This document shows positions 124 to 5,924 of a DNA stretch of 5,924 bases, in pieces. The DNA is from a virus. The notes below the pieces were generated by a model. The model was given only the letters and a program-made list of their open reading frames with translations, was not told the DNA's origin and made no database searches. Position 1 is the stretch's first letter. Each line of letters starts with the position of its first letter. The stretch is from IMG/VR virus record IMGVR_UViG_3300030243_000892, positions 1 to 5,924 of that record. One strand, written 5' to 3'. The translations under genes were made by a program, and so were the position numbers.

Positions 124-342
124 ATGAAGTCATTGCCCATACTGCCTATGTGCCTGATCTTCGTTGCTGCTCTCACGGGCTGCACGGCCACCACGTCTCT
201 GATCGTGGTGGCCGTTTCCATTAAGACCCCCCGCACCATTGAAAGGCCAGTCTATGACGTTACTCCCAATGATACCTCCGGCGGCCATGGGTCCGCTGAT
301 CTCAGCAGGCGGAGCAATCGCCCAGCAGCTTTTAGGCTCTAA
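124..342 (+). CDS. Small secreted/membrane protein with lipoprotein-type signal peptide (72 aa); function unknown, candidate lysis or exclusion factor
   Basis: The N-terminus is MKSLPILPMCLIFVAALTG|C: a basic n-region, a hydrophobic h-region and an L-T-G-C lipobox (Cys codon 181-183). A second hydrophobic stretch (SLIVVAVSI) and a polar/basic tail follow. In the unique part (124-253) third codon positions are A-poor (about 4 of 43), as in the confident genes. The last 89 nt overlap VP2 in another frame. There is no clear SD. Confidence 0.45.
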   Translation: MKSLPILPMCLIFVAALTGCTATTSLIVVAVSIKTPRTIERPVYDVTPNDTSGGHGSADLSRRSNRPAAFRL

Positions 343-1159
343 CGCTGATTATGAAACTGCGGGGGACGCGGGCTCCCGCTCGCGCCGCGAAATGCGCCAT
401 CAAAGGCGCATGATCGCGATGCAGAACAAACAGGCTCGCCAGTTCATGGCGGATACGGAAAAGAACCGTTACTCTTGGTTGGTGTCAGGAGCGCAAAAAG
501 CGGGGTTCAACCCGCTTACAGTTCTTGGTGCTACCGGCGGCGCTATGTCCGGCGGTGCGTCAGCAGGCTCGCCACTCATGCAACCCGTTCGGGGGTCTTC
601 GCCTACCGTCGGGGATGCTTTAGGAGCTGGCGTTGCCGCCTTTGCTGACAGTTACGACCCTGTGGGCTTTGCCACACGGCAGCAGCAGCTTGAAAACATG
701 CGGAAGCTGGGCAATGTGTACGACGCGGAGCTTGCGAAGTTCGGCACAGTGCCCGTCAACACCGTGAACAACTCGCCAACGCGCGTGCAGAATGACCCCC
801 TTCGCGTTCAAGTCGGTGAGCCTGCACAGGTGCGGCAAAATGACGGTCGCCCATACGCGCGGGAAGACATGTTCGATGATCGTCCGCGCATTCCCATTCG
901 TGAGAACGATGGGACGCTTTCTACGCTGGATAAGAAGATGGCGGATGCCATGGGCTATGAGCCATGGGACCAGATGCCTTCTGGCGATATGACCCACTTG
1001 CTTGGGGAGATCGCTGAAGTCGAAACGGCCTTGGAAGGAACTAAGGTCCGTCAGGAAATGCTCGGGAAAGGCTCGCAAGAAAGGAAGGCCATCAGGGATG
1101 CCGAGCGCTTGAAAAGACAGCGCGAGCTTTCGCCGTTTATTAATCAACCTATGCCATAG
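254..1159 (+). CDS. VP2: VP2-like minor capsid / DNA pilot protein (about 301 aa)
   Basis: The frame is open from TTG 239. ATG 254 has GAAAGGC (241-247) 7 nt upstream, the same arrangement as the capsid gene. The N-terminus is Gly/Ala-rich. The segment NRYSWLVSGAQKAGFNPLTVLG (AGFNP = 500-514) resembles the Y...AG(L/F)NP motif I recall from gokushovirus VP2 / H-class pilot proteins. The C-terminus is charged and helical-looking. The gene is adjacent to the capsid gene. Confidence 0.8.
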   Translation: MTLLPMIPPAAMGPLISAGGAIAQQLLGSNADYETAGDAGSRSRREMRHQRRMIAMQNKQARQFMADTEKNRYSWLVSGAQKAGFNPLTVLGATGGAMSGGASAGSPLMQPVRGSSPTVGDALGAGVAAFADSYDPVGFATRQQQLENMRKLGNVYDAELAKFGTVPVNTVNNSPTRVQNDPLRVQVGEPAQVRQNDGRPYAREDMFDDRPRIPIRENDGTLSTLDKKMADAMGYEPWDQMPSGDMTHLLGEIAEVETALEGTKVRQEMLGKGSQERKAIRDAERLKRQRELSPFINQPMP

Positions 1160-1171
1160 AAAGGCTACCCA

Positions 1172-2797
1172 ATGCAGAAACAACATTCACGCAATGTGCT
1201 ACCAACTCAGGTTTGGGACCAACAGGTCCGACGTACGCCTGTTGCTCACCAACCCACGATGCGGGATGATACCGCAGCGGTCGTTACGACTGGCAACGGC
1301 GGTAAGTTCGTTCCGCTCAAGATGTTCCCTCTTTTTCGGGAAGACGGGATGATGAACAGCAGTCTGACCATTTCGTTTGAAATGGCGGAGCTGTCGAATA
1401 TGATCATCAACCCTGTGCGCGCTACTGCTGCCGCATACTTTGTTCCTAAGCTGGCTCTTGATCGCTTCCCCGATATGGGTGCGATCGACAGGTCTTGGAA
1501 CGGCGAACCAGAGATTGACGCGAGCGTGATCCCTTGGTTCAAGCCGCTGACGGGCAATCCTTCGACCGATTGGCCTATCCTTGAGACGCTCGGGCTGCAC
1601 GGCTCTGCTGTTGACACGCCAAATGACGAATACGTCGAAGCCTATAACCAAGTTTGGAACTACATCGCGACCCAGCGGTCGCCTTCTCTGACAAAACGCG
1701 ACGTTCTTGACCCGAGCCTTGCGCCTGCGTTCTGGGAACATACCCAGATGCGCTACGTGAAACCGACTTTCGACGAGGCTATGGTTTCCGGCCGTGTGCC
1801 GCTCTCGTTTACGGGCGGTTCTGGCGAACTTCCCATAGTGTCTGCTCGGGGCGCGCTCCAGTCTGGCGGCTATCCTCCTATTGGTGCCATTATGGAAGAC
1901 ACTGGCGTCGATAACACTGTCGGTTCGGTTTTCCGTTTCGAGGACGTTTACGCTGAGCTGACAGCGGAGAGCGCCGTGATCTCGCTGGCTGACATCGATC
2001 TTGCCCGTGAAACCGTTGCTTGGGCGCGTCTTCGCAACCAGTTCCAAGGTGTTTCTGAGGAATGGATGATGGACCAGATGCTTGCTGGTATTCGGATTCC
2101 CGACCAGTCGCTGAAAAGCCCTATGCTTATTGATCATTCGTCAACGATTTTCGGCCTTGAGGAGCGCTATGCGACCGATGCCGCTAACCTTTCGGAAAGC
2201 GTTGCGCAGGGCAGAACAGCCGTACAGCTCAATATGCGCGTGCCACGGACCACTTGTGGCGGCGTGGTCGTTGTGGTGGCGCAGTGCCTTCCAGAACAGC
2301 TCTATGAGCGCCAACGGGACCATTATTTTATGGCGAGTACAGTGGAGGATTTGCCTAACCGTACCGCTGACGAGCTGGACCCGCAGCCTGTCGACATGGT
2401 CAAGAATAAGGAAGTCGATGAGGCTCATACGTTGCCCGATGATCTCTTTGGCTATCAGCCTCTCAATGCAAAGTGGATCAGGACCACTCCTCGGGTCGGC
2501 GGCGATTACTACAAGGCCAGCCCCACGTCACCATGGACCGAAATCAGAAACCGGATTTGGGACACAAATGTTGTCGACCCCGAACTCGGTCCTGATTTCT
2601 ATCTTGCCACCGATATTAAGCAGGACGTCTTCGCCAACCAGACGGTGGATACATTCGAGTTCTGGTGCTCCGGCACTGCTCGGATTAACGGCCTGACTTA
2701 CTTTGGACCTGAGCTTCTTGAGGGTTCCGACGATTACGAAAAGGTGGTCGCTCAAGTCGACACCACGCCTTTGAAAGGTGATGGCACGGATGTTTAA
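1172..2797 (+). CDS. VP1: Microviridae major capsid protein (F/VP1 family), 541 aa
   Basis: This is the longest ORF, and its size is typical of gokushovirus-type VP1. GAAAGGC (1159-1165) lies 7 nt before the ATG. The C-terminal segment DDLFGYQPLNAKWIRTTPRVGGDY (FGYQ = 2447-2458) matches the conserved FGYQ.R...YR....V.G.F block of VP1 proteins. Third codon positions are A-poor throughout. Confidence 0.93.
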   Translation: MQKQHSRNVLPTQVWDQQVRRTPVAHQPTMRDDTAAVVTTGNGGKFVPLKMFPLFREDGMMNSSLTISFEMAELSNMIINPVRATAAAYFVPKLALDRFPDMGAIDRSWNGEPEIDASVIPWFKPLTGNPSTDWPILETLGLHGSAVDTPNDEYVEAYNQVWNYIATQRSPSLTKRDVLDPSLAPAFWEHTQMRYVKPTFDEAMVSGRVPLSFTGGSGELPIVSARGALQSGGYPPIGAIMEDTGVDNTVGSVFRFEDVYAELTAESAVISLADIDLARETVAWARLRNQFQGVSEEWMMDQMLAGIRIPDQSLKSPMLIDHSSTIFGLEERYATDAANLSESVAQGRTAVQLNMRVPRTTCGGVVVVVAQCLPEQLYERQRDHYFMASTVEDLPNRTADELDPQPVDMVKNKEVDEAHTLPDDLFGYQPLNAKWIRTTPRVGGDYYKASPTSPWTEIRNRIWDTNVVDPELGPDFYLATDIKQDVFANQTVDTFEFWCSGTARINGLTYFGPELLEGSDDYEKVVAQVDTTPLKGDGTDV

Positions 2798-3449
2798 GAC
2801 AGACAGCCAATGGGAAGCGGTCTCTGACCGCTTCTCCTACGATGCCAGGACGGCAAAATTCAGTTTAAGGAGCGATGGACATGCGAGGCTGTACCTTGTG
2901 CCAGAAGATGCGGCGGAGATTTTTGTCGGCGCGGTCAACTGCGGCGAAACACGTATCGAGGTTCAAGGGAAAGCGCCCCTTCGGTTCTCGATCATTACCG
3001 ACGATGAAACGCTCGTCTGGATACGGTTCCCTGAGATCGATCAAACGGCGCTGAAAACGACCGACCAGACGTTTACGACACTGGATCGGCCCGAGCCGCT
3101 CAGCGCCGAAATGCTTGCAATCCAGAGGTTAATGCGTAGAAACGAACTCGACCGTGAGGAACAACGGCGCGACATGGAAAGGATCATCGATGCTCGATTG
3201 CACCCACCCGTTGCTCGAAAGGATAAACGAGCTGCACCAGAAGATACGTCAACCGATGCCTCGGGGAACGTGGGCAAGAAGTCAGGCGGAGGCAAGGCAG
3301 ACGCTGCGAAACAAAGCGGCAAGCCAAAAGGCGATGCCATACCTGAATTGGATGCACTGCCTGACGGAGAAACAAAGTCCCGACCTGCTGGTTCAAAGGG
3401 CGATGAGGACGTTCAAAGCGATGGAGATACCGATGGCGGGGGAAGTTAA
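2790..3449 (+). CDS. Hypothetical structural/scaffolding-position protein (about 220 aa) with a long disordered C-terminal tail
   Basis: The ORF is open from GTG 2778, with ATGs at 2781 and 2790. GAAAGG (2773-2778) is 11 nt before ATG 2790, the same spacing as for Rep, and ATG 2790 overlaps the VP1 stop (gATGtTTAA). The N-terminal ~100 aa look beta-rich, followed by a charged helix (LAIQRLMRRNELDREEQRRDMERIID). The last ~85 aa are a Gly/Lys/Asp/Ser low-complexity tail. I recognise no family motif, so the function is inferred from position only. Confidence 0.75.
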   Translation: MFKTDSQWEAVSDRFSYDARTAKFSLRSDGHARLYLVPEDAAEIFVGAVNCGETRIEVQGKAPLRFSIITDDETLVWIRFPEIDQTALKTTDQTFTTLDRPEPLSAEMLAIQRLMRRNELDREEQRRDMERIIDARLHPPVARKDKRAAPEDTSTDASGNVGKKSGGGKADAAKQSGKPKGDAIPELDALPDGETKSRPAGSKGDEDVQSDGDTDGGGS

Positions 3450-3672
3450 CGCTGGCCGCGACAGCTCCAGTTCCCTCGTTCGGTTCCTGCATTACGATTT
3501 CGCGCAGGATTTCAGCGCTGCTGAGCACGTTTTCATCGGGCATGTACTTAGGGAGCTTGCTCACGAGCTCGATGCCAGTTTGCTCCCCGAATTTGAGCCG
3601 CATACGTACACGTTTAAGGCGAATGAATTTCGGCACGACCCACCCCGTACAATGGAGATTTTTGACATTTGA
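3433..3672 (+). CDS. Small acidic hypothetical protein (79 aa core; may start at 3190)
   Basis: GGAGA (3423-3427) lies 5 nt before ATG 3433. Third positions are A-poor. The sequence looks helical and non-repetitive (SLVRFLHYDFAQDFSAAEHVFIGHVLRELAHELDASLLPEFEPH...). Without this ORF there would be a 355-nt gap between 3449 and 3805. It is followed directly by a strong hairpin. The same frame is open back to ATG 3190, which carries GAAAGG-N7-ATG. Confidence 0.5.
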   Translation: MAGEVNAGRDSSSSLVRFLHYDFAQDFSAAEHVFIGHVLRELAHELDASLLPEFEPHTYTFKANEFRHDPPRTMEIFDI

Positions 3673-3678
3673 CGGTAA

Positions 3679-3716
3679 GCCCAGCGTTTCAATCCATCGG
3701 ATTGATAACGCTGGGC
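3679..3716 (+). terminator. 17-bp stem-loop downstream of the 3433-3672 ORF (possible terminator or ssDNA structural element)
   Basis: gcccagcgtt tcaatcc (3679-3695), loop atc (3696-3698), ggattga (3699-3705), a bulged t at 3706, then aacgctgggc (3707-3716). It starts 7 nt after the TGA at 3670-3672. The downstream sequence cgttctcccc is only weakly T-rich, so this is not a canonical intrinsic terminator. Confidence 0.35.
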
Positions 3717-3804
3717 GTTCTCCCCCTCTCGTCTTCTGTTGCGCTACTGACACCTTTACCAAACCACCCCACCTCATTTTTCACTCTGAAAGGCAGATAA
3801 TCAG

Positions 3805-4974
3805 ATGTGTTCCCAAGCCGGCCAACTCAACCTAGGCGATAAAACAGTGACAATTTCTTGTAGAAAGTGCGATCAATGCGTTGCCGCTCGAAAACGGCAC
3901 TGGATTGGCCGTATCAACGCGGAAGCGGAGACCGCCAAATCCGTTACTTTCGCAACGTTTACCTATGATGGCGGCTATGACCGGAACGAGGCGTATTACC
4001 TTAAATACAGCGATTTTCAGCGCTTGATTAAACGCCTTCGCCGTCGCGGATATCGCTTTACTTACGTGGCTGTCGGGGAATACGGCTCTAAAGCCTCCCG
4101 CGCCCATTTTCATGCGCTGTTCTTTTGGGACGGGCCGGAACCGCCCGTTCCATACGATCACCGCATCCCTTACGCCAAGAACCCTTGCGGCCAAGAGCAA
4201 AATATCTGGCCTGATGGCTTCATTCAATTTGAACGCCCTCGCTCTAGGCAAGCCTGCGCGGCGTATCTCATGGACTACTTAGACAAGGATAACGTTGACT
4301 GCCTGAAATACTCCAAGGTGCCCGCCCTTGGTGAAAAATACCTGATCGAATACGCCCAAAAGCTGGGCCGTTGCGGCCTCACGCTTTTTCGCGAAAGCGA
4401 CCGTTATACGATCCCTTCTAACACGCGGGCCAACGGCCAGCTGTTCTACTACCCTGTCGGACGCGACACCGCGATTTATCGCCGGATGATCGCGGCGTTT
4501 TGCTCGGCTCATTATGCCAGCGGACGCACTGGCGCCCCAAGATGCGGCGTCGAGGTCTCCGAATACCTTTGGGACTACTCGCAAGACCTTTGCGCTACCG
4601 ACCCGCTGGAAATTATCCAAGCCTGTCATGATCTCTTTGGATCACAGGCCATTCAAGACGGTGAAAACCTCGGCCATGGATATTTCGGTTCCGAACAGGG
4701 GGAAATTTATCTGACAGACGCGAAAGGCTCGAAAATATGGGAAGCTCATATCGACAACGGAAGCGGCGACAGTCAAAGCGCAAACCTGCTGCGCCTGCTG
4801 CGCCTAAAGTTTCAACATCTAAAAACACGGGGGTATCTTCCCGACGATCTCCCGTCACAAAACCTCAACCTTTCTCCACTGCCCAACGGCTCGCTGGATA
4901 CCGCCAGTTTGCTATCGAGGTTTCCCGAGATAAGAAACGCGCAGCCGAGAGAAAGCAAAAAGAGCGCGCGTTAG
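3805..4974 (+). CDS. VP4: Rolling-circle replication initiator, HUH endonuclease (Microviridae VP4 / gpA family), 389 aa
   Basis: N-terminal C-x2-C-x2-C (CRKCDQC, 3859-3879). Motif I is FATFTY (3949-3966). Motif II, the HUH, is HFHALFF (4105-4125). Motif III has two tyrosines four residues apart, YLMDYLDK (4264-4287), as in phiX174 gpA. The segments KRLRRRG...YVAVGEYG are also typical of VP4. GAAAGGC (3788-3794) lies 11 nt before the ATG. Confidence 0.93.
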   Translation: MCSQAGQLNLGDKTVTISCRKCDQCVAARKRHWIGRINAEAETAKSVTFATFTYDGGYDRNEAYYLKYSDFQRLIKRLRRRGYRFTYVAVGEYGSKASRAHFHALFFWDGPEPPVPYDHRIPYAKNPCGQEQNIWPDGFIQFERPRSRQACAAYLMDYLDKDNVDCLKYSKVPALGEKYLIEYAQKLGRCGLTLFRESDRYTIPSNTRANGQLFYYPVGRDTAIYRRMIAAFCSAHYASGRTGAPRCGVEVSEYLWDYSQDLCATDPLEIIQACHDLFGSQAIQDGENLGHGYFGSEQGEIYLTDAKGSKIWEAHIDNGSGDSQSANLLRLLRLKFQHLKTRGYLPDDLPSQNLNLSPLPNGSLDTASLLSRFPEIRNAQPRESKKSAR

Positions 4975-5354
4975 CTGCCGCTCCCACGTACAAGCCTGTA
5001 CGCATCACAAAAAACGTTCGTACACGAAAAGGACCCACGACGCATCGAGGGTCGTCACTCGTTCTTGAGCCCTTTGGGCGGGAACAATCTAAGCCTCGCG
5101 GACGGTCTGCCGCGCGCAGCGCTCGCGACAACGTCACGCCCCCTACCAAAACCAACCCCCAACTCACCCCGTTCCAGCTGAGGCGCATCAACCGTTCCCG
5201 AAAGAACACACGGAATGACCATTCTTCCAAAACCCCCTGCAAAGAGCGCCCCGACGCCTCGAAAGCAGCTAAAAAGCAGGGGAAAGGCACTGGCCTTGCC
5301 TTCAAGTCCCCTGAACGCCCGAAACAAAAGCGGCGTTTCGAGAAGTGGTGCTGA
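4737..5354 (+). CDS. Hyperbasic Lys/Arg/Pro/Ser/Thr-rich protein (205 aa) overlapping the Rep 3' end; candidate DNA-binding/packaging protein
   Basis: GAAAGGC (4722-4728) lies 9 nt before ATG 4737. This is the only ATG/GTG/TTG in the frame, so the ORF must start inside Rep (238-nt overlap, frame -1 relative to Rep). It covers the otherwise unassigned 4975-5354. The composition recalls J/ORF8-type DNA-condensing proteins but the ORF is several-fold longer. Third-position A is higher than in other genes, partly from AAA Lys codons, so the coding signal is weaker. Confidence 0.5.
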   Translation: MGSSYRQRKRRQSKRKPAAPAAPKVSTSKNTGVSSRRSPVTKPQPFSTAQRLAGYRQFAIEVSRDKKRAAERKQKERALAAAPTYKPVRITKNVRTRKGPTTHRGSSLVLEPFGREQSKPRGRSAARSARDNVTPPTKTNPQLTPFQLRRINRSRKNTRNDHSSKTPCKERPDASKAAKKQGKGTGLAFKSPERPKQKRRFEKWC

Positions 5355-5422
5355 CCTCGAACCCGATCTCATCGGTTCTCAGCCCCTTACTGTGCTGAAC
5401 CGCAATTCTATGCCGTTGCGGA

Positions 5423-5489
5423 TCTGCCAAGCTCCGAGCCGACCGTAGGGAGCCCGTAGGGTGGCGAAGCCATCTCGGTGCTTGGCAGA
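5423..5489 (+). repeat. Structured repeat copy A: 16-bp stem with a conserved 35-nt loop
   Basis: tctgccaagcTccgag (5423-5438) pairs with ctcggTgcttggcaga (5474-5489), with one T:T mismatch (5433/5479). The loop (5439-5473) is ccgaccgtagggagcccgtagggtggcgaagccat and contains GCGAAGC at 5464-5470. Confidence 0.7.
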
Positions 5490-5542
5490 GCTGCAACACG
5501 CCAGCCCCATTCAGCGGCGGAGCCGCAGCCTTAATTCGACTT

Positions 5543-5568
5543 CCCCTCCCCCCGACCCACCGGAGGGG
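5543..5568 (+). other. C-rich/G-rich hairpin
   Basis: cccctcc (5543-5549) pairs with ggagggg (5562-5568) across a 12-nt C-rich loop. A second mini-hairpin, gcggc-gga-gccgc, lies at 5514-5526. Confidence 0.4.
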
Positions 5569-5598
5569 GGTACTTAGGCAGCAAGCGAAGCGCGCAGC

Positions 5599-5694
5599 AA
5601 GGCCAAGGGGCTGACAGGGTACGAGCCGACCGCAGGGAGCCCGTAGGGCGGCGAAGCCGTCTCGTTCCCTGTCAGACACGCAGTGCCGCCCCTT
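5599..5694 (+). repeat. Structured repeat copy B: 15-bp stem, conserved 35-nt loop, outer 6-bp stem
   Basis: ctgacagggTacgag (5611-5625) pairs with ctcgtTccctgtcag (5661-5675), with a T:T mismatch at 5620/5666. The loop (5626-5660) is ccgaccgcagggagcccgtagggcggcgaagccgt, with GCGAAGC at 5651-5657. An outer stem pairs aagggg (5605-5610) with cccctt (5689-5694). Confidence 0.75.
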
Positions 5695-5706
5695 CCTTCC
5701 TTCCTT
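5691..5706. repeat. (CCTT)4 tetranucleotide tract between copies B and C
   Basis: ccttccttccttcctt is read directly at 5691-5706. Confidence 0.8.
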
Positions 5707-5707
5707 C

Positions 5708-5802
5708 AAGGCCAAGGGGCGGACAGGGTACGAGCCGACCGCAGGGAGCCCGTAGGGTGGCGAAGCCATCTCGTTCCCTGTCAGACACGCAGTGCCGCCC
5801 TT
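5708..5802 (+). repeat. Structured repeat copy C: direct repeat of copy B (period 109 nt, about 96% identical)
   Basis: cggacagggTacgag (5720-5734) pairs with ctcgtTccctgtcag (5770-5784). The T:T mismatch (5729/5775) is retained, and there is one extra mismatch (g5721/a5783). The loop (5735-5769) is ccgaccgcagggagcccgtagggtggcgaagccat, with GCGAAGC at 5760-5766. Confidence 0.75.
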
Positions 5803-5825
5803 GTCTGGTCGTAGTGCGAGCTTGC

Positions 5826-5924
5826 GAGCCTAACGGCCAGACGCGCACCCGAGGGAAAACGGACAGGAGGGAGCTTGCGACTGGATGCGTTTTCCCGTGC
5901 GCAGAGCATCGTTCTTGACGGATT
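5826..5924. repeat. Terminal direct repeat, copy 2 (same sequence as 1-99)
   Basis: Identical to 1-99. It duplicates the hairpin (5843-5902) and the first part of the candidate promoter. Confidence 0.95.

Follow-up and report, generated by a model that had tools for sequence, protein, structure and literature searches.

The open reading frame (ORF) at positions 4737 to 5354 of the viral DNA analysed here is a gene with its own start codon, and its very basic product is probably an internal virion protein of the family of Gp10 of Rhodobacter phage Ebor, a protein that would neutralise the charge of the packaged ssDNA. The gene is of a known but usually unannotated kind; the Ebor Gp10 family was described in 2025, and databases mostly miss it. 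The whole stretch analysed, referred to below as the window (5,924 nt), holds the complete genome of a microvirus, circular and 5,825 nt long, with bases 5826-5924 duplicating bases 1-99. Its IMG/VR entry carries direct terminal repeats, and the genome is that of an uncultured virus. Every gene of the window is on the + strand, and the features relevant here are the following.

254-1159, + strand: pilot protein VP2 (ORF).
1172-2797, + strand: capsid protein VP1 (ORF).
2778-3449, + strand: conserved gene for an acidic-tailed protein (pI 5.0), directly 3' of VP1, the usual scaffold slot.
3805-4974, + strand: Rep, a replication initiator of the VP4/A-type HUH class (PF23343, 1.3e-16; phrog_942, 1e-30), overlapped at its 3' end.
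4722-4728, + strand: GAAAGGC, a Shine-Dalgarno-like element, the last base of which is 9 nt before the A of ATG 4737, with 8 bases between.
4737-5354, + strand: basic-protein gene, 205 aa (ORF list, leave-one-out HMM, BLASTP, hhalign and selection in relatives).
4737-4974, + strand: stretch coding in two frames, where the first 79 codons of the basic gene (frame +2) lie over the last 79 of Rep.
5106-5126, + strand: SAARSAR motif, residues 124-130, common to the nearest family subgroup.
5169-5213, + strand: conserved basic helix FQLRRINRSRKNTRN, residues 145-159 (alignments; predicted as a helix by AlphaFold2, with a pLDDT of 81-92 for the block).
5238-5351, + strand: C-terminal module, C168-K-E-R-P172 ... 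W204-C205-COOH, the invariant family signature.

The frame of the basic ORF, +2 (= -1) relative to Rep, is open from 4665, following a TGA, which is 24 codons upstream of the ATG, and ATG 4737 is the sole ATG, GTG or TTG across the entire open frame. The gene overlaps Rep by 238 nt, and the 380 nt (4975-5354) beyond Rep make up ~60% of its length. The single start, the overlap and the tail had been described in the initial annotation, as had a GAAAGGC 9 nt before the ATG, like those upstream of VP2, VP1 and Rep, and a very basic product; the ORF listing and the sequence upstream of the ATG confirm the former features, and the computed composition (pI 11.88, K+R 27.8%, D+E 5.9%, net charge +45) the latter. 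The GAAAGGC heptamer occurs six times on the + strand versus 1.33 expected, a number reached in 2 of 200 shuffles, and GAAAGG is present upstream of the ATGs not only of VP2, VP1 and Rep but also of ORF 2790 and ORF 3190. Alphaproteobacterial 16S rRNA carries CCUUUC close to its 3' end, and complementarity to this sequence makes GAAAGG a plausible Shine-Dalgarno variant. The openness of the 380-nt tail is, on its own, weak evidence for a gene, with the tail staying open in 8.4% of dinucleotide shuffles. When the Rep codons were redrawn synonymously 5000 times, the part of the basic frame within the overlap stayed open in just 4 cases, and codon-position composition inside the window does not discriminate between the frames. 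By itself, an open frame here is no more than a moderate surprise, and it is the comparison with relatives that decides.

Used as a single query, the window ORF had no match by tblastn in 50,697 phage records or by a word-indexed search of 5.8 billion proteins, matched no Pfam family at E values up to 0.1 and retrieved nothing from the ESM Atlas; Rep, as a single query in IMG/VR, similarly found no relatives. The family surfaced only when the ORFs of relatives reached through VP1 and Rep were read. Searches with these two proteins identified six microviruses from the gut of Ciona robusta, with VP1 sequences ~48-56% identical to that of the window and, more distantly, isolated Rhizobium and Roseobacter phages and tortoise microviruses, and in each of these relatives a very basic ORF straddles the end of Rep. 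This ORF is annotated as 'hypothetical' in the isolates RHph_TM24 (QIG67100), RHph_X92 (QWY83450) and CRPss-152 (XAO36511) and is unannotated in five of the Ciona records (MH572517-20 and MH572491), and publications about the Rhizobium, Roseobacter and Sulfitobacter phages leave the basic protein undiscussed. An alignment-based scan with VP1 contributed another 44 genomes from IMG/VR and 18 contigs from metagenomes. No close relative of the window was found in IMG/VR, JGI metagenomes or GTDB genomes, the best VP1 matches being at ~53-63%. The sole prophage match, in a Maritimibacter MAG, is to a sequence that ends before Rep. The window VP1 has ~53% identity to its counterparts in the Ciona genomes, 36-39% to those in Tortoise microvirus 43 and the Rhizobium and Roseobacter phages, and only 25% to that of Ebor. 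The Ciona genomes were assigned by Zucker et al. to the 'Occultatumvirinae', and the window belongs to this Occultatumvirinae-like clade, outside the Tainavirinae in which Gp10 was described.

The basic ORFs of these genomes share a C-terminal signature. Under the relaxed motif C-x-x-[RKP]-P...W-C, the ORF is present in 54 of the first 56 genomes, and there are 64 loci, the window included, where the Rep 3' end is accompanied by a basic ORF terminating in this motif. Its frame is +2 in nearly all cases, and +1 in Ebor, RHph_X92 and Tortoise microvirus 43. In the relatives reached through VP1 and Rep, the motif takes the form C-K-x-R-P...[FY]-[VI]-P-W-C or C-x-x-[RK]-P...[RK]-W-C, and a search of the 56 genomes with the strict form, C-x-x-R-P...W-C, gave 46 matches on the + strand and none on the - strand. 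Full-length family ORFs have pI values of 10.5-12.0, and a K+R content of ~20-29% was taken as characteristic of a family product. Only Met1, C168, P172, W204 and C205 (window numbering) are invariant columns of the family alignment, but the N-terminus (M-A-K-R-x-R-R) and the basic helix (consensus LAAxNxxRRxxRNS) are also conserved. The window and its nearest subgroup have in common SAARSAR, the helix LAALNxRRxxTRN, C-x-x-[RK]-P-D-S-x-K-A and a terminal [RK]-W-C, with AARSAR present in the family members P0019-P0022, P0024, P0028-P0032 and P0037. A Shine-Dalgarno-like tetramer is located at -17 to -4 of 51 of the 56 distinct family starts, versus a background of 14% in Rep genes, and in most relatives the open frame starts only a few codons before the basic ATG.

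The homology search that the initial annotation had called for succeeded once these relatives were available. An HMM was built from 56 family members, with the window excluded, and used to search the window's full set of 111 stop-to-stop frames; it matches the basic frame alone (E 1.6e-12; the next best frame is at 0.53), with an alignment that begins at Met 4737, and BLASTP of the window ORF against the relative P0030 gave 2e-9. When the family of the window was compared by hhalign with the set from Ebor and the Rhizobium and Roseobacter phages, a match with a probability of 84% and an E value of 7.5e-6 was obtained over the C-terminal 33 columns; direct BLASTP of the window ORF against Ebor Gp10 was not significant (E 0.27). 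The link to Ebor is based on this 33-column C-terminal profile match, together with position and composition. The family is sparsely represented in protein databases. A profile search of 1.84 billion representative predicted proteins retrieved just 36 members, the family profile retrieved nothing from the PDB sequences, neither the window ORF nor any of 43 family members matches a PHROG, and these 43 members had no relevant Pfam family at E values up to 1, in a collection that would include the models for J, scaffolding protein B and gokushovirus proteins.

As the window has no close relative, selection was measured in a sister cluster of 13-14 genomes with basic proteins that are 70-89% identical. 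The dN/dS values for the three frames were as follows.

Tail beyond Rep: basic frame 0.11, Rep frame 1.90, remaining frame 2.13.
Rep body before the basic ATG, aligned on Rep: basic frame 2.77, Rep frame 0.05, remaining frame 1.80.
Overlap, aligned on Rep: basic frame 0.42, Rep frame 0.81, remaining frame 1.36.
Overlap, aligned on the basic protein: basic frame 0.34, Rep frame 0.81, remaining frame 1.62.

The basic ATG occupies a single alignment column in 13 of 13 genomes of the cluster, and it is exactly at this ATG that the dN/dS of Rep leaps from 0.05 to 0.81. In these relatives, the Rep tail is the weakly constrained partner and the basic frame the selected one. Consistent with this, the window Rep ceases to be homologous to that of the relatives at about residue 326 or earlier, the basic gene starting at Rep codon 311. 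The dual-frame test suggested in the initial annotation, run here on the sister cluster rather than on the window, comes out with the basic frame under selection (0.34-0.42 in the overlap), but the constraint that overprinting had been expected to place on Rep runs in the opposite direction, with Rep at 0.81 in the overlap versus 0.05 in its body.

The family has a three-part layout, with a long and mostly disordered region rich in Lys, Arg, Pro, Ser and Thr, the conserved basic helix and the C-terminal module. The full-length AlphaFold2 model of the window protein, based on a 43-sequence alignment, has a mean pLDDT of 65.6; residues ~1-45 are predicted as low-confidence coil without secondary structure, residues 48-81 as a lineage-specific charged helix, residues ~100-123 as disordered (pLDDT below 50), residues 145-159 as the conserved basic helix and residues 174-182 as a short helix. 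The same topology was obtained when the C-terminal 70 residues were modelled from a 55-sequence alignment (pLDDT 72) and, in both models, a beta-bridge between residues 168-169 and 203-204 draws the two Cys together. Foldseek searches with this model of the C-terminal module retrieved no related fold from the PDB, and the BFVD hits were no more than noise.

Within the family, presence in the virion has been demonstrated for Ebor Gp10 only. The gene g10 overlaps the 3' end of Ebor rep and encodes a protein of 145 residues with a pI of 11.3 (Bardy et al., mBio 2025, PMC11980548). LC-MS/MS of purified Ebor virions identified Gp10 as the only protein present in significant amounts besides the capsid and pilot proteins, with Rep and the other non-structural proteins not present in significant amounts, and Gp10 has no density in the icosahedral maps (PMC11980548). 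It was described as a putative charge-mitigating virion protein, an analogue of VP8/J, with a position and size that also resemble those of scaffolding protein B, and was stated to be conserved in the 'Tainavirinae' (PMC11980548). The GenBank label (PP754850, XAV39057) is 'putative bifunctional structural protein'. As in the window, the Ebor gene (5719-6156) begins inside the 3' end of rep (4776-6065), on the same strand, and passes the rep stop; both products are low-complexity and very basic (pI 11.3 for Gp10 vs 11.9 for the window protein), and both carry C-K-x-R-P...W-C at the C-terminus (CKMRP...FVPWC in Ebor), the Gp10 C-terminus, HCKMRPMDHSSKGGGSRPFVPWCKKV, conforming to the family signature. 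The window protein is, however, longer (205 vs 145 aa) and more charged (net +45 vs +22), its frame relative to Rep is +2 rather than +1, and it has a 31-residue Pro-Trp linker and ends with ...RRFEKWC at the very C-terminus, whereas Gp10 has a 15-residue Gly-rich linker and F-V-P-W-C followed by three more residues. The proteins of the Rhizobium and Roseobacter isolates and the Ciona microviruses resemble that of the window in position, basicity and C-terminal motif. The window protein is, then, a long and highly charged member of the Ebor Gp10 family.

The window protein most likely serves inside the virion as a companion of the packaged ssDNA, and we infer its DNA binding, copy number and capsid anchoring. 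Translation would start at ATG 4737, within the rep 3' end, from the gene's own GAAAGGC site, and the product would be packaged with the ssDNA. There, the disordered basic region and the helix would neutralise phosphates, the job of the ~40-residue J/VP8 proteins in other microviruses, and tethering of the chain to the capsid interior or to other copies would fall to the structured C-terminal module. As computed, 60 copies would offset 46% of the genome charge, versus 20% for Ebor Gp10. The same 60 copies of this 23-kDa protein would add ~1.4 MDa inside a T=1 shell, which may exceed the space, and the real copy number may therefore be lower.

No other conserved basic ORF is present in the window. 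ORF 2875-3054, which is basic and has AAGGAG upstream, was considered as a J-like candidate and rejected, having no counterpart in any relative. The initial annotation had interpreted the product of ORF 4737-5354 itself as a greatly enlarged J-like DNA-condensing protein. The type of function fits the proposal made for Ebor, but descent from J does not hold up, as there is no Pfam or PHROG match. The J gene of phiX174 is located between D/E and F, a position different from that of the basic gene in the window. The role proposed for the window protein is that of J and gokushovirus VP8, a basic internal protein that offsets the charge of the packaged ssDNA, and binding of this ssDNA with displacement of the internal scaffold at packaging is likewise proposed by analogy. 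At 38-39 residues (PMC11980548), versus 205, J and VP8 are far shorter, and they have no sequence similarity to the window family and no Pfam match to it. The likeness to J/VP8 is one of analogy, not membership; judged by sequence, the window protein is not an enlarged J, and it and its relatives make up a family of their own, distinguished by the C-terminal module.

Among other functions, scaffolding deserves the most attention. The B protein of phiX174, which is not basic, is encoded wholly within gene A and binds the coat protein by its aromatic C-terminus, and the invariant C-terminal Trp of the family, in a conserved and structured C-terminal end, recalls this coat-binding end. As with gene B, the window gene covers the 3' part of the Rep gene in a different frame, and the two genes are similar in size, a likeness of position and size also noted by the Ebor authors, and the GenBank label of Gp10 has the protein as bifunctional. 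It is conceivable, although rather unlikely, that the basic protein is mainly an internal scaffold, the counterpart of B, or is bifunctional, with charge neutralisation secondary. About 60% of the window gene lies beyond Rep, unlike gene B, the extreme basicity of the product is unlike B, the window protein has no sequence match to B in Pfam, and family members are without any Pfam match. Gp10 stays in mature Ebor virions, whereas phiX174 B exits the capsid at packaging (PMC11980548). In addition, the scaffold slot of the window is already filled by the separate, conserved acidic-tailed gene (2778-3449, pI 5.0), which favours a core role over a pure scaffold role.

The two roles might also be combined. 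We suggest, tentatively and with low confidence, that the C-terminal module, in which the two Cys are drawn together with the Trp and the chain mostly stops right at W-C, might be a clasp that fixes ~60 copies to the inner capsid wall or cross-links them, so that the protein would serve as both a scaffold and a DNA-condensing core. If so, one large protein would replace the separate B/VP3-type and J/VP8-type proteins, and close to half of the genome charge would be offset by the basic protein.

That the protein is instead non-structural and has a DNA-directed role in the cell, such as in the switch to ssDNA synthesis or packaging or in the control of Rep, with the signal from Ebor virions due to passive co-packaging with DNA, seems improbable. 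Translation of the basic gene is tied to the end of rep, the composition is of a nucleic-acid-binding type, and the capsid maps show no Gp10 density; nevertheless, Gp10, unlike Rep, is present 'in significant amounts' in purified Ebor virions, and the invariance of the C-terminal module points to a specific contact with a protein.

Very little can be said for translation of the basic frame by ribosomal frameshifting from Rep, resulting in a Rep-basic fusion. The 24 open codons 5' of the ATG and the fixed frame of the overlap in most relatives would be compatible with such an event, but the conserved ATG is accompanied by a Shine-Dalgarno-like element in 51 of 56 starts, the conserved M-A-K-R N-terminus begins exactly at this ATG, the open frame of the relatives mostly starts just a few codons before it, the overlap in Ebor, RHph_X92 and Tortoise microvirus 43 is in the other frame (+1), and no common slippery site was seen. 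Equally implausible is a non-coding region with an ORF that is a by-product of T-poor, A/C-rich composition, for although chance openness of the 380-nt tail is not rare and the codon-position composition of the window is not decisive, this reading is refuted, as far as computation goes, by the HMM match (E 1.6e-12), the shift in dN/dS at the basic ATG and the dN/dS of 0.11 for the tail in relatives which, with the motif confined to the + strand, also uphold the initial annotation of a protein-coding gene, a homologue of which has been detected in virions.

Identification of the window protein as a Gp10-family member, probably acting in the virion core, extends the family. With a VP1 only 25% identical to that of Ebor, and with Ciona kin in the 'Occultatumvirinae', the clade of the window places the Gp10 family beyond the 'Tainavirinae', and its range now takes in Rhizobium and Roseobacter phages of the Occultatumvirinae type. 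Most public records of the clade omit or truncate the gene, and a 600-nt coding region is consequently routinely read as non-coding. A simple rule for its detection is available, the motif C-x-x-[RKP]-P...W-C together with an internal Shine-Dalgarno element plus ATG and a collapse of the constraint on Rep at this ATG. With its net charge of +45, the window protein is an extreme case with which to ask why a core protein of 100-260 residues replaces one of 40 residues.

Besides the basic gene, the window has an ORF that overlaps the acidic tail of the gene directly following VP1 (capsid); it is listed here with another ORF, inside that gene, and with a repeated element.

3154-3672, ORF of 172 codons, in a different frame from gene 2778-3449 and overlapping its acidic tail
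2875-3054, basic ORF of 59 codons, 31% K+R, within gene 2778-3449, with AAGGAG upstream
5411-5800, element of ~94 nt in three copies, each of which forms a long hairpin

For the 172-codon ORF, tblastn similarity is present in many relatives, with E as low as 3e-17, and its ATG at 3190 is preceded at 7 nt by GAAAGG; this is probably a second genuine overlapping gene. The same GAAAGG is located 6-10 nt before the ATGs of VP2 (pilot), VP1, the ORFs starting at 2790 and 3190, Rep and the basic gene (window 241-4728), and acts as the ribosome-binding motif of this phage; the ORF at 124 has no GAAAGG before its start. The 59-codon ORF has a counterpart in none of ~70 relatives and is therefore probably spurious.

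The basic gene is poorly represented in public records. In L001-L005 (MH572517-MH572520, MH572491), microviruses from the gut of Ciona robusta, annotation is absent or wrong over the 600-940 nt 3′ of Rep, and it is in this region that the Gp10-like gene is located in each genome. L006 (MH572490) is alone among the Ciona relatives in having no basic ORF with the C-terminal signature of the family. Its Rep (2668-4116) is annotated as 482 aa, ~100 aa longer than that of its neighbours, and its basic gene may have been fused or destroyed through a frameshift or sequencing error. L029 (6,417 nt) and L030 (an 11,056-nt contig) each have the basic gene twice, the copies being near-identical in the former and clearly different in the latter; both look like concatemeric or chimeric microvirus assemblies rather than single genomes.

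Two of the three hairpin copies are 97% identical, and the entire non-coding arc (5355-5825) folds much more strongly than its shuffles (z -5.55). Rfam gave no match.

One end of a 53.8-kb bacterial contig from a Maritimibacter sp. MAG (L076, CAXRHZ010000029) carries a VP2-VP1 block with 38% identity to the VP1 of the window. This block is probably a prophage in a Rhodobacterales host, truncated before Rep, and, as such, provides a hint at the host of the wider clade.
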